Source: Escherichia coli | GTDB taxonomy: Bacteria > Pseudomonadota > Gammaproteobacteria > Enterobacterales > Enterobacteriaceae | Assembly (NCBI RefSeq): GCF_030013595.1 | Contig: NZ_CP122768.1 | Direction: 5' to 3' (one strand) | DNA length: 64,000 nt | In this document: in pieces, positions 18,340 through 39,729 of the stretch | Numbering within the stretch: the first letter of the stretch is position 1 | How the letters are laid out: each line of letters opens with the position of its first letter | Notes under the pieces: model-generated | Database searches by the model: none | Told to the model about the DNA's origin: nothing | What the model saw: the letters and a program-made list of their open reading frames with translations, nothing else | Program-made: the position numbers and the translations under genes

Positions 18340-18556
18340 CGTATTTCCTTTCTTAGGGTATAAAGTAGCGGGCAGCATATCAGCCACACTTCTTTGGGTA
18401 AAACTTTGTCGCGGGAATGATGACAAATCCCGGGGAAAAAGAAACAATAGCAATATCCCGTATGAATATAATAAAGGCGGGTTTACCACGGACATCATAG
18501 CGTTAGCTTATTCATAGGCTATGATTGAGGAACAAGACGCGGAGCAGGAGGAAACC

Positions 18557-19195
18557 ATGCCCGGGCGCTTTGAACTAAAACCAACCCTGGAGAAAGTCTG
18601 GCACGCGCCGGACAATTTTCGCTTCATGGACCCGCTGCCGCCGATGCATCGTCGGGGGATCATTATTGCCGCCATTGTATTGGTAGTCGGATTTCTGCTT
18701 CCATCTGATGATACGCCCAACGCGCCGGTGGTGACGCGTGAAGCGCAGTTAGATATTCAGTCGCAATCACAACCACCGACAGAAGAACAGCTGCGGGCGC
18801 AATTAGTCACGCCACAAAATGATCCTGATCAGGTGGCTCCGGTCGCTCCAGAACCAATACAGGAAGGCCAGCCAGAAGAGCAGCCGCAACCCCCCCAAAC
18901 GCAACCATTCCAGCCAGATAGCGGAATTGATAATCAATGGCGCTCTTACCGTGTCGAACCCGGTAAAACGATGGCACAGCTGTTCCGCGACCACGGGCTG
19001 CCCGCTACCGATGTCTATGCAATGGCGCAGGTAGAAGGCGCGGGTAAGCCGCTGAGTAATTTGCAAAACGGGCAGATGGTGAAAATCCGCCAGAACGCCA
19101 GCGGCGTGGTGACGGGCTTAACCATTGATACGGGGAATAATCAACAGGTCCTGTTTACCCGCCAGCCGGATGGCAGTTTTATTCGTGCGCGGTAG
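18557..19195 (+). CDS. ytfB: OapA/LysM-domain cell-division-associated protein YtfB (212 aa from MPGRFELKP; alternative start at 18521)
   Basis: ORF 18521-19195; single TM segment, Pro/Gln-rich linker, C-terminal OapA-like domain. Confidence 0.85.
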
Positions 19196-19329
19196 ATGAA
19201 GGGTCAACCAGAAGCCAGCTAAGGAGCGTCTCTTTGATGACCTTACGTCTGGCTTCCAGTGCCTGGGGGGAAACCATACTGATGTGTTGACATCCTCCAC
19301 GCCCTGAAGGACGTGGATCCCTGCTACGT

Positions 19330-20538
19330 TCAGGCTGTCGCCTGAATCATTTCGGTGGGTTCCTGCTTCAACGAGCGGCCTGACTGCACCATCTCTCCAC
19401 AGGCAAGAACGGCGTGCCCCGCCGCTAAAATGTTACGAGCGCCATTTACATCGGCGTTCGCTGTATATCCACATACCTGGCATCTGAATTTAATTTGTGA
19501 CAGGCGATTTTCTTTCGCTGTATGACCACAGCACGCGCAACGCTGGCTTGTGTACGCTGGCGGAACAGCAAGCACCTGACCGCCACGCCAGAGCTGCTTG
19601 TACTCAAGCTGGCGGCGCATTTCATACCAGCCCTGATCCAGTATCGAACGGTTTAAACCTGATTTTGCCCGGACATTGCGCCGCGGCTGGCTGACCGTAC
19701 CCGCTGCTGACTTTGACATGTTGCTGACCTTCAAATCCTCAATGACTATCATTGCGTGGTTTTTGCTGACGGTCGTTGTGACTTTGTGAAGGTAGTCCCT
19801 GCGGATATTTGCGATACGGGAATGCAGTCGCTGTATTTTGCGTTTCTGCTTCTGCCAGTTATTGCTGAATTTGACCTTGCGGCTTAACTGTCGCTGAAGT
19901 CTCGCCAGCTTCTTCTGTTTTTTCTGAAAACTGTTTACAGGCTCAAAGACTGTGCCATCTGACAGCGTGGCGAGTTTAACCACGCCAGCATCCAGCCCGA
20001 CCATTGATGCTGAAGGATGAACCGGAGTTGATACTTCACTTTCTGTCTGAATACTGATGTACCACTTACCGCAGGACTGGCTGACCGTGACATTTTTCAC
20101 AACACCCGTGACCTGACGGCTATTCCGGTAGCGCATCCAGCCCAGTTTCGGCAGAAAAATACGGCTGTTTTCCTGATAGAGCTTAACGCCCTACGGGTAG
20201 CGGAATGCATCATTCTGTCCCCGCTTTTTGAATCGGGGAAAAGCAGCCCGCTTCTGGAAGAAGTTTTTGTAAGCCCGCTCAAGGTCTTTCAGTGACTGTT
20301 GCAATGGCTGTGACGGGGCATCTTTAAGCCATTGCGTTTCAGTGGCATTTTTCCACTCAACCAGCCAGGAAGCCATTTTCCCGTAAGGGATGTATTTATT
20401 ACCGGCCTCATGATTCTCATTCTGAAGCGCCAGAGCACGATTGAAAACGAAACGACATGCGCCTGCGAAGCGCCTCATTTCACGCTCCTGTTGACCACCG
20501 GGTCTTAACTGGAATTTAAATGCCTGTCGTCGTTTCAC
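19330..20538 (-). pseudogene. tnpB: tnpB (IS605 OrfB / TnpB RNA-guided nuclease family), ~402 codons interrupted by one in-frame TAG at 20191-20193
   Basis: N-terminal ORF (GTG start) VKRRQAFKFQLRPGGQQE...AFRYP, then TAG, then in the same frame GVKLYQENSRIFLPKLGW-MRYRNSRQVTGVV...; C-terminal part has RuvC-like region and CxxC...CxxC zinc finger ([39 protein letters not shown]). Confidence 0.8.
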
Positions 20539-20545
20539 AGGTCAA

Positions 20546-21000
20546 ATGATACTTTGGTCTGTGAAAAAAGAAACCTATATCCGGCGTGGAAGGTATTGTG
20601 TTTTCCTGATGCATGTTCACCTGGTCTTTGTCCCAAATACCGACGCCAGATTTTTGACCATGACGCGACAGAAAAACTACGCACTTACTTTTCAAATGTA
20701 TGTGCTGATTTTGAAGCTGAACTGGTTGAAATGGATGGCGAACCAGATCACGTCCATTTGTTAATTAAATATCCTCCCAAACTGGCGATATCCAGTCTGG
20801 TAAACAGCCTCAAAGGCGTATCGGGTAGGTTACTGCGACGAGATCGACCAGATATTGCAGTCAGGTATTACTACAAAGGCGTTTTGTGGAGTCCTGGCTA
20901 TTTTGCCAGTAGCTGTGGAGGTGCGCCAATATCCGCCATCCGTCAATCCATTGAACAACAGCAAACACCTGGTCAGGTGGAAAACCGCGCCGTATATCCC
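20546..21000 (+). pseudogene. tnpA: tnpA (IS200/IS605 Y1 HuH transposase), frameshifted; 3' limit uncertain
   Basis: Frame 1 MILWSVKKETYIRRGRYCVFLMHVHLVF, then a 1-nt frame change in a T-run (~20620-20630) into CPKYRRQIFDHDATEK...DHVHLLIKYPP (HuH motif)...[16 protein letters not shown]; a Ser occupies the position where family members have the catalytic Tyr. Confidence 0.7.
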
Positions 21001-21357
21001 CGCCCTGAAGGACGGGGTTTTACGGCACACCGGATAAACCAGGCCAAGCGTATGCTGGTTGATCAAATAATATCCCCCAAGCGCAGCAATATTAATATAC
21101 ACCTGCAATGGGTCGATATCTGGCTTAAAAATATTGTGTTTCTTCCCTTCATCCAATAAGGATTCCATTAACTGCAAGTGCGCATGATTAATTTCTAAGA
21201 GACGCTGTGATTTTACATAATGCACACCTTTACTTTGGTTTTCACTATGCACAATTTTTAAAAACCAAGGATTAGCAATATAATATATCCTAGGTAAAAT
21301 CGATGATTTTTTCAATGGCTTTTTGTGGCTGGTTAACCTGCTGATTAACAAACGCAC
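20830..21357 (-). CDS. Hypothetical ORF (175 codons) starting in the low-GC islet and reading into the IS element end; possibly a ytfA-like gene remnant
   Basis: ORF track 175 aa [17 protein letters not shown]...; roughly the first 108 codons lie outside the IS hairpin at ~21017, the rest is antisense to tnpA. No recognisable domain by eye. Confidence 0.3.
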
Positions 21358-21603
21358 CGATACCGACAGCGTAGAATAATTACATACCGCACAACAAGAA
21401 TGTATGGTGTAAGGCGTTGTCAGTCATCTCCCTCCCTGGGTGCATCTTTATATCCGTGATGAGCGATTTTTGATATTAATATCTTTTACTATCCGCTATT
21501 TTCACCACTTCAGAAAACAAACTTATTTTTATTAATATCGATTATTTATTCTGTGCACATTCAGCTGCGATATTTATAAAAAAATTAAACAGGCAAAAAT
21601 ACA

Positions 21604-22398
21604 ATGACATTACCAACCACTATTTATTCATTTCCTGCATATTCACCCCGTTTTTCGTCCACCGACAAACCAGTAAAATTAAAATTTCATCAATACGCAC
21701 GCGCTACATTACTTTCAAATCGAGGAAGAGATCATAATTGCGATGGCAGACATACTGTTGAGATCCACAAACTAGATCTCTCAGGCTGGCAAGCATTCAA
21801 TAAGTTAGCGACGAGGTGTAATGCTTACGATGGAATAACAATGAATGGTGATAATTCTTTTGGATGGAACCATGAAGCTACATTAGATAATATTCACGCC
21901 CAGAAATACAATAAAGCTTACGCGGGTGCGAGGTTAACCGCAGAACTGAAATATTTATTGCAAGATGTTGAATCCTTCGAACCCAACAGTAAATACACAA
22001 TACACGAGGTTGTTTTGGGACCTGGTTATAGTACTCCAGACTATACCGGCCAAACGATAGGATACGTTGTAACCCTTCCTGCCCAAATGCCTAATTGCTG
22101 GTCATCTGAACTACCAACAATCGATCTTTATATCGACCAACTTCGCACTGTTACAGGCGTTTCTAATGCCCTCGGATTCATCATTGCTGCATTGCTAAAC
22201 GCGTATTCTGATTTACCCCATGATTTGAAAATTGGTCTGCGTTCCTTATCAAGTTCAGCAGCAATCTACTCGGGTTTGGGTTTCGAGCGAGTGCCGCAGG
22301 GCCGAGACATAAGGTGCGATCGTATGCATCTAACGCCAGCAAACCATCCTGAATTATGGACACAAGAGAATGGTGAATGGATCTACTTGCGAAACTAA
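21604..22398 (+). CDS. yjfZ: Uncharacterized protein YjfZ, 264 aa, low-GC gene
   Basis: ORF track 264 aa MTLPTTIYSFPAYSPRFSSTDKPVKLKFHQYARATLLSNRG...; AT-rich codon usage and AT-rich upstream region. Confidence 0.8.
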   Translation: MTLPTTIYSFPAYSPRFSSTDKPVKLKFHQYARATLLSNRGRDHNCDGRHTVEIHKLDLSGWQAFNKLATRCNAYDGITMNGDNSFGWNHEATLDNIHAQKYNKAYAGARLTAELKYLLQDVESFEPNSKYTIHEVVLGPGYSTPDYTGQTIGYVVTLPAQMPNCWSSELPTIDLYIDQLRTVTGVSNALGFIIAALLNAYSDLPHDLKIGLRSLSSSAAIYSGLGFERVPQGRDIRCDRMHLTPANHPELWTQENGEWIYLRN

Positions 22399-22420
22399 TA
22401 CCTAACGAAAAATAGAAAGC

Positions 22421-22448
22421 AAAACGCCGACCAGTGGTCGGCGTTTTT
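22421..22448. terminator. Bidirectional rho-independent terminator between convergent yjfZ and rplI
   Basis: aaaa-cgccgaccagtggtcggcg-ttttt: GC-rich stem flanked by an A-run and a T-run. Confidence 0.75.
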
Positions 22449-22468
22449 ACGTCTCGTTGAATAACGAA

Positions 22469-22930
<462 letters not shown>

Positions 22931-23512: not shown

Positions 23513-23926
<414 letters not shown>

Positions 23927-24234
23927 TTATTCAGCCTCCTGTCTGGGTCAGCCGAATCCCGGGGAGGCAAGGAACGTGTTAAAGGTCGGCTGAAAAATGA
24001 CGCATTATAGTACTGACATACCCTGCTAAACTCAAGGCCAGCCGACAAATAAATCTCATCTTTCACCAAATCGTACTAACACGCTGATTTGAAGTTCATC
24101 ACACTTCATCATGGTGTTTTTTTGAACAACTGCATCAGAAATGGTCACCATCAACTTCTTTATCATTGATTAAAATTAAATCAGAAGATCATCACAGAGG
24201 AGAGCACACAAAGTCAGCCGTCGAGGAGGTATCT

Positions 24235-35999: not shown

Positions 36000-36638
36000 T
36001 TAGCCTCCCCAATGCCCACGGGCGCTGGAAGAACGACCATAGCCGCCGCGAGAAACGGTTGACGCTTTTTTGGTGGTAAAGCCGCCCGAAGAATAGGACT
36101 CTTTTTTGCCAGAACCGGAGCGCCAGGAGTAATCACCGGAAGTGTTGCGCCAGACGGGGCGCGAAGCAAAAGAGGAACCGCCGCTGTTATACACAAACTG
36201 CTCGTCGCGATCTTTACGAATAACCCGGCTTAACAAAAATCCAGAAACAACCGGGATCCAACTCTGTTCAACGTTGTCGTAGTAACAATTTTCATACTTA
36301 GACTGACAATTCTGCTGAGTCATATTCTTCGGAACATCGGCATAAAACGCCGCTTTGGCGTTGTTCCAGCCATGAGCACAGATATCTGAATTATTACCGT
36401 CATCAATACAATCCTGCACAGTCGAGTAAAACGTTCCGTCGCCGTCGTTATCGACATCGCCACTATCGCCACAACCTTTCAATACGAAAAAAGCGGCACC
36501 GCCCATTAGCGCCAACGTTAAGTATTTTTGTGCGTAACGATTGCGACGCGGTTCAAAAGGATTATTCGGTCTACCAATGCGACTGATCGCTCCGTGACCA
36601 ATTTTACTGTTATTTCTTGATTTGCGTTTTCTGGCCAT
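36000..36638 (-). CDS. yjfM: DUF1190 protein YjfM, 212 aa
   Basis: MARKRKSRNNSKIGHGAISRIGRPNNPFEPRRNRYAQKYLTLALMGGAAFFVLKGC...; Gly/Ser-rich C-terminus. Confidence 0.85.
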   Translation of the reverse strand: MARKRKSRNNSKIGHGAISRIGRPNNPFEPRRNRYAQKYLTLALMGGAAFFVLKGCGDSGDVDNDGDGTFYSTVQDCIDDGNNSDICAHGWNNAKAAFYADVPKNMTQQNCQSKYENCYYDNVEQSWIPVVSGFLLSRVIRKDRDEQFVYNSGGSSFASRPVWRNTSGDYSWRSGSGKKESYSSGGFTTKKASTVSRGGYGRSSSARGHWGG

Positions 36639-36647
36639 GATCGTCCA

Positions 36648-37046
36648 TTACCATGTCATACAAGCTGCGTTAAAAATACCGCCAGCCAGTGCGGCGGTTC
36701 CCATAAACATTCCTGCTGCGGTATTGTGATTAATAATTTTTTCGCTTAATGCGGGCATATAAAGTCTGACGCCAGCAAAAACGAGTAACTGAATCACCAG
36801 TGCGATCCCGCCCCAGGCGAAATAGTCTGGAATACTCACCGCATTGATTGCCGCACTGGATAAGGGGATCACGTAACCCAACAATGTACCGCTGAACGCC
36901 AGTGACGCCGCGGTATTATTGTTTTTGATTAACTGCCATTCGTTGTGCGGTGTAATTTTAGAATAGATAAACAGAAAAATAATCACCATAGCCACGCCAA
37001 TAAAAAAATAGGCACTAAAGGCAAGAAGAGAATCCAGTATATGCAT
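36648..37046 (-). CDS. yjfL: DUF350 inner-membrane protein YjfL (132 aa from MHILDSLL)
   Basis: ORF 36648-37127; four hydrophobic helices. Confidence 0.85.
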   Translation of the reverse strand: MHILDSLLAFSAYFFIGVAMVIIFLFIYSKITPHNEWQLIKNNNTAASLAFSGTLLGYVIPLSSAAINAVSIPDYFAWGGIALVIQLLVFAGVRLYMPALSEKIINHNTAAGMFMGTAALAGGIFNAACMTW

Positions 37047-37063
37047 TGTAAACGTCCTTGTAA

Positions 37064-37723
37064 TTAACCAATAATATGAAGTGATGTCAGCGGGATATCG
37101 ACACCCAACGCGCGCGAAAATAACCACTCTGGCTCGCCGAGATCGTTAAAAGATTCCTCACCATTTAGCAGCAAATATTCGTAAGTATCTTCGGTTACTT
37201 GCCGTTGGTAGCCCATGGTAAAATTATGTACTTCCCATTTGGCATGGTTTTGATTTTCTACTTTTTCCAGCATGTAGACGGGTTCGATATTTCCCGGTTC
37301 TTCGCTGTTAAAAAATCGCTGCCAGCGTTTTTCCTGCCAGTTTAAGGTCATTGCCCCCATCGCTTTGGCATTGATCGTCTCGCGCCAGTGACTCTCTTTA
37401 CTGATACCGTAGCTCTCTTCATAGACAAAGAGCTTGATATCATCAATGTCATCAATATTTTCGCCGCCGGTGGTATTGATTTGCAGAAACTCATCGCCTG
37501 AAGTGTAGTAGCGGAAAATCTGGCTACCGCCGCCCAGATCGATGTGACTGACAGCGGCTACCGTAAATTCCTCACCCGGCAGCGCAATCAGCAATTCATC
37601 TTCCAGCAAACGAAATGCTAACGTGTCGAGCGTAAAGCCACTATTGAGATGCAGACCCAGCGGACCGCGAGCGATAGCAGGCTTATTATCCTTGCCAAAG
37701 AGACGCTGGAAAAAACCAGACAT
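37064..37723 (-). CDS. yjfK: DUF2491 protein YjfK, 219 aa
   Basis: MSGFFQRLFGKDNKPAIARGPLGLHLNSGFTLDTLAFRLLEDELLIALPGEEFTVAAVSHIDLGGG... Confidence 0.85.
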   Translation of the reverse strand: MSGFFQRLFGKDNKPAIARGPLGLHLNSGFTLDTLAFRLLEDELLIALPGEEFTVAAVSHIDLGGGSQIFRYYTSGDEFLQINTTGGENIDDIDDIKLFVYEESYGISKESHWRETINAKAMGAMTLNWQEKRWQRFFNSEEPGNIEPVYMLEKVENQNHAKWEVHNFTMGYQRQVTEDTYEYLLLNGEESFNDLGEPEWLFSRALGVDIPLTSLHIIG

Positions 37724-37772
37724 ATTTTATCCTTAAAATAGTTGCCAGCCTTGCAGTGAGGCTGGCAAAAAA

Positions 37773-38471
37773 TTACTCGCCCTGTTGGCGTTGCAGTCTT
37801 GCTAATACATCCTGGGCGCTACTTTTATTGCTACCGCCTATTCCGGCTTCCGCCAGCTTTTCATCAAGATCGCGACCGTCTGCGACTTTTTCCAACTGTG
37901 CAGCAGCATCCAGGCGAGCCTGACGTTCGGCCTGACGCGTTTGCAGGCGTTTTAAGGATTCTGCCGCTGTCGAAACGCTGGAAGATGCGCCAACGGTAGA
38001 GGTCGTTACAGCCTGTTGTGCACGCTGCATGGCTTCAGTAGCTTTAACGACTTCCATTTGCTGCTCAAACTGAGCGATACGCTGCGCTGTCGCTGTAACT
38101 GCTTTTTCCACGCCATCACGAGAGACTTCCAGATTCGACAACACTTGCTCTTCAGCGGTAATGAGATTCTCAAGGCGCGCGATTTCTTCAGCAACTTCGT
38201 TAATCAACGACGGATTAACGTTCTTGCTTAACGCTTCCAGCGCACGGGCTTCCAGACTGGCTTTGCGCTCACGTAAATCTTTCAGCTTATCGTGACTTAA
38301 TTTCACCCGCGCCAGCAGATCAACGCGAGATTTTCCGGCTTTATCGAGTTCAGCTTTAGCGTCACGAATATGCTGTTCCAGCATGCGCACGCCCTGGGTT
38401 TCTTCAATGGATTCTTCCGCCTGAGAGATAAACGATTTCCCCAGCGTAAATAAACTTTTTAAAATTCCCAT
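37773..38471 (-). CDS. yjfJ: PspA/IM30 (ESCRT-III-like) family protein YjfJ, 232 aa
   Basis: MGILKSLFTLGKSFISQAEESIEETQGVRMLEQHIRDAKAELDKAGKSRVDLLARVKLSHDKL... long coiled-coil with PspA-like N-terminus. Confidence 0.88.
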   Translation of the reverse strand: MGILKSLFTLGKSFISQAEESIEETQGVRMLEQHIRDAKAELDKAGKSRVDLLARVKLSHDKLKDLRERKASLEARALEALSKNVNPSLINEVAEEIARLENLITAEEQVLSNLEVSRDGVEKAVTATAQRIAQFEQQMEVVKATEAMQRAQQAVTTSTVGASSSVSTAAESLKRLQTRQAERQARLDAAAQLEKVADGRDLDEKLAEAGIGGSNKSSAQDVLARLQRQQGE

Positions 38472-38489
38472 AAATACCCGTCCTTGTAA

Positions 38490-38891
38490 TTAGAGTGAAT
38501 ATTCTTCTGTAATTTCAGCCAGATCCAATGCGTTATCTACCAGCGAGGTTATCTCAAGCAGGATATCTTCAAGAGAAGATTTAAGCGATAACGCCCCGAA
38601 AACAATGTAATACTCTTCATGTTGCACGCTGGAGATCCCTACCGATGACAACGGCATCATCTTCTGATTTCTTAATAAGAAGGTATTAAATTCATCTGGA
38701 TTGCTGATACTACTTACCGGACAAATAAAGGTTTCGATAATCATTTGGCGGGAAGTAAATAGAATATTGATTTGCAAATCGCCATAATCATTCATTTTAA
38801 TAATTAATGCGTTCTCGCCATTTGTTACATCAATATTTTGTTCAGGTACAGTTTGCAGCGCCGTCGCCAGCGCCAACGGATTCCATGTCAT
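38490..38891 (-). CDS. yjfI: DUF2170 protein YjfI, 133 aa
   Basis: MTWNPLALATALQTVPEQNIDVTNGENALIIKMNDYGDLQINILFTSRQMIIETFICPVSSI... Confidence 0.85.
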   Translation of the reverse strand: MTWNPLALATALQTVPEQNIDVTNGENALIIKMNDYGDLQINILFTSRQMIIETFICPVSSISNPDEFNTFLLRNQKMMPLSSVGISSVQHEEYYIVFGALSLKSSLEDILLEITSLVDNALDLAEITEEYSL

Positions 38892-38959
38892 ATATTATTC
38901 CATATAAATTAAGTTTAAATATTAATAAAATGAATATTTGCAGTACGTAATTATCTTAC

Positions 38960-39680
38960 CAGCTATAGACAAATAAATATCCTCCGGCATAGCCGGAGGT
39001 TTTTCAAATGCGCCTGTAAGGCTCTGTTACCAGCCGCGCCCTAACAGGCGCATACGATCTGACATTTGCATTCAACTTCGTTACTTACGGCCCGTAAACG
39101 GGCTGCCCGGATATGGAATCGATAACTGCTCCCCCATTTTATCCTCTTCAAGCTGGTGCTTTATGTAGTCCTGTATCTTCGCCGTGTTCTTACCCACCGT
39201 ATCGACATAGTACCCTCGGCACCAGAACTCCCTGTTTCTGTATTTGAATTTCAAATCCCCAAACTGCTCGTAAAGCATCAGACTGCTTTTCCCTTTCAGA
39301 TATCCCATAAAGCCGGATACGCTCATTTTGGGTGGGATTTCCACAAGCATATGGATATGATCTGCGCAGCACTCTGCTTCCAGAATCCGTACGCTTTTCC
39401 ACTCACACAGCTTTCTCAAAATACTGCCTATCGCCCTACGCTTCTCTCCGTAAAACGCCAGTCTTCGGTATTTCGGCGCAAAAACTATGTGATATTTACA
39501 GTTCCAGCGGGTGTGCGCTAAGCTCTTTTCGTCCCCCATTGGGACCCCCTTTTGATTTCTTGTTTGACACTTGCAGTTGCCAGACCGCAAGGTGTTTTAA
39601 CAAATCAAAAGGGGTTTTAATAACTGGCTCAAAGCTGAAAGCTTTCCGGAACCCCCAGCCTAGCTGGGGGTTTTCTGTGC
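38960..39680 (-). mobile_element. IS200: IS200-type insertion sequence (single tnpA, ~0.7 kb); boundaries approximate
   Basis: tnpA reading frame with IS200-type protein sequence; hairpins near both ends (cccccagcctagctggggg at 39651-39669; cctccggcatagccggagg at ~38969-38991); lies between the rlmB terminator and the yjfI start. Confidence 0.7.
39081..39539 (-). CDS. tnpA: IS200 Y1 (HuH) transposase TnpA, 152 aa from MGDEKSLAHTRWNCKYHIVFAPKYRR
   Basis: ORF 39081-39590; HuH motif HIHMLVEIPP, conserved PKYRR and C-terminal Tyr region (KIQDYIKHQ). Confidence 0.88.
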   Translation of the reverse strand: MGDEKSLAHTRWNCKYHIVFAPKYRRLAFYGEKRRAIGSILRKLCEWKSVRILEAECCADHIHMLVEIPPKMSVSGFMGYLKGKSSLMLYEQFGDLKFKYRNREFWCRGYYVDTVGKNTAKIQDYIKHQLEEDKMGEQLSIPYPGSPFTGRK

Positions 39681-39712
39681 ACAAAAAAAAACCATCCAAA
39701 TCTGGATGGCTT
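39681..39712 (-). terminator. Rho-independent terminator downstream of rlmB
   Basis: Minus strand: gccatccagatttggatgg stem-loop followed by ttttttttt (plus-strand aaaaaaaaa-ccatccaaatctggatggc). Confidence 0.75.
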
Positions 39713-39729
39713 TTCATAATTCAGAGGAA

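Follow-up and report, generated by a model that had tools for sequence, protein, structure and literature searches.

A low-GC tract beside IS609 in Escherichia coli is probably a composite of gene loss in the ytfB-rplI slot and the accessory gene yjfZ

This study concerns a 1384-bp AT-rich tract (positions 21037-22420) within a 64,000-nucleotide stretch of Escherichia coli DNA (contig NZ_CP122768.1, assembly GCF_030013595.1), the whole of which is here called the window. The tract lies between an insertion sequence (IS) of the IS200/IS605 family and the terminator of the ribosomal protein gene rplI, and contains yjfZ, a gene of the DUF2686 family. Our results indicate that the tract is quite probably what gene loss has left in the variable ytfB-rplI slot, to which yjfZ belongs as a separate, dispensable gene, and not a recent IS-borne import. 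It is a composite of five parts: a remnant of the TetR-family gene ytfA, a relic of a reductase gene, the 5' region of yjfZ, yjfZ itself and the rplI terminator. A sequence-only reading of the same DNA had proposed a horizontally acquired islet of low GC (guanine plus cytosine) content; the observation behind it is real, and its interpretation as an imported islet is partly supported. All genome counts given below refer to 5426 complete E. coli genomes.

The compositional contrast is not in doubt. At 39.3% GC against a window mean of 52.0% (standard deviation 3.4% for 1384-bp windows), the tract is markedly AT-rich, as had been claimed, and is the lowest-GC stretch of its length in the 64 kb; only 0.1% of windows of this size reach so low a value, the minimum being at 21041. 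The GC content is 36.4% in the ytfA remnant and 42.3% in yjfZ, whose GC at third codon positions (GC3, 0.355 versus an open reading frame mean of 0.570, standard deviation 0.071) and codon-adaptation index (0.520 versus 0.693, standard deviation 0.072, computed on the window's own codon usage) are the lowest among the 58 long open reading frames (ORFs) of the window. A typical composition is thereby excluded. The limits assigned to the features from sequence alone were nearly exact: yjfZ occupies 21604-22398 (+ strand, 264 amino acids), and the IS ends at 21033, not at 21036. The stretch 21160-21600, which had been described as AT-rich and non-coding, is indeed AT-rich (34.2% GC), but it is not simply non-coding, for it holds 170 bp of a TetR pseudogene and about 86 bp of the reductase relic.

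The left third of the tract is a scar and not an acquisition. Positions 21034-21329 (- strand) encode the ligand-binding domain of a TetR-family protein, residues ~83-180, without the N-terminal helix-turn-helix (HTH) domain; they match Pfam TetR_C_29 (E=3.7e-20), no other TetR domain being detected, and are 95% identical to the intact ytfA of strains Nissle, TUM12368 and CT02. Homology to intact YtfA begins at about residue 83, residues 1-82 with the HTH domain being deleted, and what is left of the frame is broken by a +1 frameshift near 21286 and by the IS, a copy of IS609, between codons 180 and 181. On the far side of that element, 19179-19286 (- strand, in overlap with the ytfB 3' end) supplies residues 181-215 of the regulator, its final 35, and the stop codon, matching the C-terminus of intact Nissle YtfA. 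Both flanks of IS609 are one gene, with the break between Y180 and H181 of the 215-residue Nissle 1917 protein. The PGAP annotation labels the larger piece as frameshifted with both the N- and the C-terminus missing, and the smaller as a partial TetR/AcrR gene. Intact ytfA is likewise AT-rich, at 41-43% GC. The gene has been found in all strains of E. albertii and E. fergusonii examined and in only some E. coli (PMC6790063), and its K-12 copy has been handled as a pseudogene (bioRxiv 10.64898/2025.12.20.695731).

TetR homology ends at about 21330, where a second fragment begins. Positions ~21331-21416 (+ strand, ~86 bp) are a diverged piece, about codons 26-58, of the gene for a 3-ketoacyl-acyl carrier protein (ACP) reductase, the first gene of the operon that intact ytfA faces in other strains. 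The piece is collinear with the intact gene and 78-81% identical to the annotated reductase in operon-bearing genomes sampled across the ranking. Exact and near-exact pattern searches for it in the Nissle operon gave no match; sensitive blastn later placed the segment in the reductase gene, which rules out its being unmatched filler. The junction between ytfA and the reductase lies within GTGGCGGA, an 8-bp repeat that the two intact genes share, and that between the relic and the yjfZ 5' region within a short imperfect microhomology (AAgGCG-TG / AAcGCGTTG). From 21411 on, the window aligns with the spacer between the major facilitator superfamily (MFS) transporter gene and yjfZ in TUM12368, a strain that has both operon and yjfZ. 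Both the ytfA remnant and the relic of the reductase gene are dead. About 2226 genomes have this scar form and 3148 (58%) have the operon; in 2500 further genomes, which lack yjfZ, only the first 293 bp of the tract, the TetR part, are matched.

These junctions suggest how the arrangement may have arisen. Among the forms with yjfZ, that of TUM12368 is the fullest observed: ytfB, intact ytfA, the divergent operon, yjfZ and rplI. Two microhomology-mediated deletions, to which the junction sequences point, would have removed the HTH domain of ytfA, the shared divergent promoter and ~7 kb of operon, leaving ytfA residues ~83-215 and the ~86-bp reductase relic fused to the yjfZ 5' region. IS609 interrupts what is left of ytfA at codon 180/181 and has itself decayed in this strain.

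In the window, the gene order is fklB (-), ytfB (+, 18521-19195), the IS200/IS605-family element, the TetR-like fragment, yjfZ (+) and the rplI-rpsR-priB-rpsF operon (-). The entire 1384-bp tract is 100% identical to that of strain HCP5S3_I2, from pig faeces in the UK; its identity to the K-12 sequence is 96%. In other genomes, at least three alternative modules are found next to the rplI terminator. An intact, 215-residue ytfA faces the divergent operon in Nissle 1917 and CT02, which lack yjfZ, and in TUM12368, which has it and, like other such genomes, has no IS at this site. The operon encodes a 3-ketoacyl-ACP reductase, a sugar-phosphate isomerase/epimerase, an enoyl-coenzyme A (CoA) hydratase, a CoA transferase, a flavin adenine dinucleotide (FAD) oxidoreductase and a transporter of either the MFS or the tripartite ATP-independent periplasmic (TRAP) type; the annotation does not name its substrate. 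Between operon and ytfA, chromatin immunoprecipitation sequencing located a CRP peak in enterotoxigenic E. coli H10407 (PMC4287617). The place of yjfZ, corresponding to 21411-22415 of the window, is taken in 1047 genomes by a hipBA-like cassette, an HTH gene and a HipA-family toxin gene, the latter frameshifted in Nissle; in CT02 a three-gene TRAP transporter directly abuts rplI. The right boundary of the slot is fixed, with homology between the yjfZ and hipBA forms resuming ~5 bases before the terminator hairpin, near 22416. That hairpin (22421-22447, - strand), located by a terminator scan, has a 12-pair stem and faces the 3' end of yjfZ.

The adjacent IS had been offered as evidence of import, and this does not hold. 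IS609 (19287-21033, - strand, 1747 bp) is a decayed copy inserted precisely within the ytfA remnant. Its limits follow from alignment to the empty site of K-12, where ACTGATGTG is directly followed by ATAAACCAGG: insertion was exact, with zero target duplication. As in its family generally, there are TnpA (Y1) and TnpB genes, subterminal hairpins (21-nt repeats at 19296-19316 and 20997-21017), no terminal inverted repeats and no target duplication; the Pfam matches are Y1_Tnp, OrfB_IS605, Cas12f1-like_TNB and HTH_OrfB_IS605. A stop codon interrupts tnpB/insQ (- strand, 19330-20538), and tnpA (+ strand, from 20546) carries a frameshift and no longer has a stop of its own. The element is ~98% identical to copies annotated as IS609, and O55:H7 holds an intact copy at the same site, which is occupied in 1744 genomes. 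Subtraction from the 2226 scar-form genomes leaves ~480, K-12 strains included, that have the scar without the IS. A 517-bp query spanning IS and scar was non-discriminating at the 80% coverage threshold; among 40 records taken evenly down the ranking, IS609 at this site went with the scar form in 13 of 13 cases, and the 20 with intact TetR all lacked the IS there. IS609 thus appears, from these alignments, to be an insertion into the ytfA remnant that is unrelated to the arrival of yjfZ and was not its vehicle, because K-12 and other strains share the scar without the IS and because yjfZ is also found where the operon is intact and the IS is missing. The K-12 site may be empty ancestrally or through precise excision, and the insertion may have preceded or followed the deletions.

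The guide (omega, or right-end) RNA of a TnpB is expected to be encoded around the tnpB 3' end and the nearby end of the IS. At 19274-19403 (- strand), a region of this kind, Rfam gave two sub-threshold matches (HgcC, 23.9 bits, E=0.013; RAGATH-18, 29.5 bits, E=0.01). At a permissive threshold Rfam returned only sub-threshold matches, at the tnpB 3' end and at the terminator, and none within 21034-22398.

How well does the proposed gene loss fare against acquisition? Were 21037-22420 a single acquired low-GC islet whose arrival was tied to the IS605-like element, its atypical composition, the presence of yjfZ in only 47% of genomes and the IS abutting the tract would all be expected. We nevertheless regard this as very unlikely, for the halves of the ytfA pseudogene flank IS609 seamlessly, the left part derives from ytfA and its operon, the same scar and yjfZ occur without the IS in the ~480 genomes noted above, and yjfZ is also found beside an intact operon with no IS. 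There is, moreover, one IS copy, no flanking repeat and no integrase, and the phages and true plasmids of the collections searched hold no YjfZ homolog. Of the proposal of horizontal acquisition, then, atypical composition and variable presence stand; a mobility signature or donor, and a single islet, do not. The tract is bordered by the rplI terminator and by a deletion junction, and neither a donor nor any mobility signature at them (integrase, tRNA, flanking repeats or IS copies) was found.

Gene loss in place has difficulties of its own. The relic diverges by 19-22% from every intact allele sampled, and the adjoining ytfA remnant by ~5%. A simple, recent in-place deletion fails to explain this relic divergence, which calls for either an event of some age or a donor with a divergent allele. 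The direction of change, operon loss as opposed to gain, is provisional. A different history would have yjfZ and the diverged relic (21331-22415) arrive by homologous recombination, the donor being a divergent Escherichia lineage whose locus had already undergone the deletion, and the ytfA remnant being resident. Identity does fall from ~95% to 78-81% exactly at 21330, the segment is 84-100% identical among E. coli next to an rplI that is 99.6-100% identical, and its right boundary lies at the rplI terminator, the point from which the alternative cassettes start as well. Yet no donor with a closer allele was found among the 5426 genomes (in the 40 sampled records, the closest intact allele reaches 81%), YjfZ-type proteins are labelled E. 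coli or Shigella only, and the neutral decay of an old scar could equal the observed divergence; we consider such an import improbable. For the divergence of the relic and 5' region (21331-21603, 84-100% identical among E. coli, with differences of up to 11-16%, alongside ribosomal-protein genes at 99-100%), an old, neutrally decaying scar, an import of 21331-22415 and a locally raised rate of mutation or recombination are the candidate explanations. The intergenic region 23909-24234, beyond rpsF on the yjfY side, is also polymorphic (93.6-98% among E. coli).

Gene loss, still the reading that we prefer, leaves yjfZ as a separate matter. Its product matches PF10887 (DUF2686) over residues 5-264 (E=2.6e-151; 502.9 bits against a gathering cut-off of 25). 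Universal presence, which would have told against acquisition, is excluded: the gene is present in 2538 genomes (47%), other cassettes filling the slot elsewhere. Most of the records listed in the sample annotate an intact 264-residue gene, the copies of strains S1-KEN-04-A and G5 being frameshifted. (In G5, a YagU-family gene is additionally present between yjfY and ulaF.) When 5.8 billion and 1.84 billion proteins were searched, the only matches were E. coli and Shigella YjfZ, its paralog YjiC and one metagenomic singleton, and the YjfZ-type proteins bear E. coli or Shigella labels exclusively. The singleton, P0038, is a 329-residue protein on a 1.5-kb Logan contig (SRR22388111), encoded beside an HU-like gene, and its C-terminal third matches DUF2686; used as a query in a third large protein search, it returned itself alone. 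No YjfZ homolog was found by tblastn in the phage collection searched, nor on true plasmids: the "plasmid" matches were records of 0.37-4.9 Mb, all typed non-mobilizable, and the one inspected carries the chromosomal genes iadA, hypT, iraD, yjiC and uxuR. NCBIfam, PADLOC and PHROGs held no match for YjfZ or YjiC.

The DUF2686 family is coding, weakly constrained and fast-evolving, because the ratio of nonsynonymous to synonymous substitution rates (dN/dS) is ~0.3 in both yjfZ and yjiC versus 0.03 in uxuR. For yjfZ the ratio ranges from 0.19 to 0.48, below 1 in all ten allele pairs. The near-core yjiC (4895 genomes, 90%) is flanked by iraD and uxuR in both E. coli and E. albertii, and between these species its product is 62% identical (dN 0.26, dS 0.86, dN/dS 0.30); the neighbouring uxuR, at similar dS, is 96% identical (dN 0.022). 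Low GC cannot date an import of yjfZ because yjiC, at the same locus in two species, is equally AT-rich (39.6-42.7% GC). The low GC of the tract reflects intrinsically AT-rich genes under weak constraint and does not mark a recent IS-borne import.

The 5' region of yjfZ (21411-21603, + strand), a putative promoter and leader, is AT-rich, common to the operon-keeping strains with yjfZ and 88-94% identical among E. coli strains. In K-12, the spacer between yjfZ and ytfA binds both the RpoD holoenzyme and H-NS in genomic systematic evolution of ligands by exponential enrichment (SELEX; PMC3946193). By analogy, the AT-rich spacer is most likely an H-NS-bound and largely silenced promoter region of yjfZ: 21034-21603 would carry the putative promoter, covered by H-NS and mostly silent, and a monocistronic yjfZ transcript would end at the rplI terminator. 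Set against this, a sigma-70 scan of 21000-22500 returned 5 sites where 4.8 are expected in shuffled sequence, and the binding on which the analogy would depend is that of K-12 DNA in vitro, not of this strain. The window has 78 matches to a high-affinity H-NS consensus, TCGATAAATT, 4 of them in the tract, which is no convincing enrichment.

Profile and structure searches, another line of evidence that could bear on the gene, found DUF2686 as the sole Pfam family of YjfZ and, among structures, almost exclusively Gcn5-related N-acetyltransferases (GNATs). AlphaFold2 models of YjfZ and YjiC, although of low confidence (predicted local distance difference test, pLDDT, 47 and 49; 55-84 in the C-terminal half), both show the GNAT order b1-a1-a2-b2-b3-b4-a3-b5-a4-b6-b7 around a mixed beta-sheet. 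Foldseek gave GNAT matches with E down to 2.5e-5, and the two models and two structure-comparison methods converge on this one superfamily. In the pyrophosphate-binding motif A loop between b4 and a3, YjfZ and YjiC have T-V-T-G185-V-S against the consensus Q/R-x-x-G-x-G/A; the glycine is invariant in the family and the first and last positions are off consensus. The singleton P0038 has G-A-S-G-A-G in this loop and matches Acetyltransf_10 below the gathering cut-off (E=0.075). On the strength of the models, YjfZ is likely to be a GNAT-fold protein. Besides the low confidence of both models, several sequence comparisons speak against the assignment: the Pfam GNAT families gave no match to YjfZ or YjiC even at E<=10, a YjfZ-family profile found only chance-level matches among PDB chains (E ~1), hhalign of that profile with E. 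coli RimI gave a probability of 0.3%, and NCBIfam offers no link of YjfZ to the GNATs.

It might be objected that yjfZ is a non-functional or decaying ORF kept by drift and its resemblance to GNATs an artefact of weak models. The frameshifted alleles, the absence of the gene from 53% of genomes, its low codon adaptation, the low model confidence and a DUF as sole curated family match would fit. Decay is nonetheless unlikely in view of dN/dS values below 1 in 10 of 10 allele pairs, of a yjiC that has stayed open at one locus in E. coli and E. albertii (dN/dS 0.30 at dS 0.86), of intact 264-residue annotations in most of the sampled records among the 2538 matching genomes, and of the agreement of two models and two structure methods on one superfamily. 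A far more specific role has also been weighed, in which YjfZ is a solitary GNAT-type toxin akin to the tRNA-acetylating TacT, AtaT and KacT, placed in a slot that elsewhere holds a hipBA-like module. GNAT toxins do rank high among the structure matches of YjfZ; flanked by the scar and the rplI terminator, yjfZ stands as a single-gene unit, and 21330-21640 contains only ORFs of 21-31 amino acids with no supporting evidence, and no adjacent antitoxin gene. We think this role highly improbable. A small antitoxin ORF upstream of yjfZ was considered separately and rejected, the only candidates being those unsupported ORFs. More broadly, and tentatively, DUF2686 may comprise unrecognised, extremely diverged GNAT-fold acyltransferases confined essentially to Escherichia, evolving ~10 times faster in protein sequence than their neighbours and largely silenced by H-NS; the alternation of yjfZ with a hipBA-like cassette in its slot would fit a conflict-related (toxin-like or modification) role.

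Several points have a wider bearing. A low-GC patch beside an IS resembles a small genomic island, and in this case the patch consists of a scar of gene loss and, joined to it, an accessory gene restricted to the genus, with the IS incidental. An AT-rich family with a member, yjiC, at a locus common to two species shows low GC to be a poor clock for horizontal transfer. The ytfB-rplI slot, with its interchangeable modules, could act as a lineage marker, and the GNAT-like fold offers a first testable hypothesis, acyl-CoA binding, for yjfZ and yjiC of K-12. There is also a practical side. A paper on quantitative PCR (qPCR) for water quality describes YjfZ as a signature protein common to all E. 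coli and Shigella (PMC11057252). Its "YjfZ" primers match yjiC, the forward exactly and the reverse with 1 mismatch, and the forward primer has no match in the window even with 3 mismatches allowed. The claim of universality is affected, yjfZ being present in 47% of complete genomes and yjiC in 90%.

Elsewhere in the window, 36000-39724 contains the second and third lowest-GC stretches (42.6% and 44.7%), around yjfI-yjfJ-yjfK-yjfL-yjfM, a set that encodes the PspA/IM30-like YjfJ and DUF proteins and has GC3 values of 0.41-0.51.

Compared with known systems, the GNAT-fold assignment is the sole, mildly new element, the other components being of known kinds. Unlike established GNATs such as AAC(6')-Ib, SpeG, TacT, AtaT and KacT, YjfZ and YjiC have no sequence-profile match to the superfamily, and they differ further in the N-terminal ~50 residues and a long a1-a2 insertion, which are modelled with very low confidence. 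The likeness to AT-rich accessory genes under xenogeneic silencing by H-NS would consist in an AT-rich promoter and gene and in H-NS binding to the K-12 spacer; it is limited in that the origin of yjfZ may not be foreign and the silencing itself is presumed. With annotated copies of IS609 the element shares ~98% DNA identity, the lack of target duplication, subterminal hairpins and divergent tnpA and tnpB, the window copy differing in being dead (internal stop in tnpB; tnpA frameshifted, its stop lost). YjiC is of the same family as YjfZ, with 38-43% amino acid identity, similar length, low GC, a dN/dS of ~0.3 and the same predicted fold; it differs in being near-core, with its locus kept in E. 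albertii, whereas yjfZ, in 47% of genomes, occupies a slot of swapped cassettes. Strains with an intact ytfA operon (Nissle 1917, UTI89, ST131, TUM12368 and CT02) have the same slot, a TetR gene 95% identical over the retained part and the same reductase gene, but keep the HTH domain, the divergent promoter and ~7-9 kb of genes, the rplI end being occupied by yjfZ, the hipBA-like cassette or the TRAP transporter. The closest counterpart is K-12 itself, whose ytfA (b4205, a pseudogene) and yjfZ (b4204) show the same scar and the same order, ytfB, ytfA remnant, yjfZ and rplI; it differs in its empty IS site, where the window has IS609 at codon 180/181 and a +1 frameshift in the remnant.

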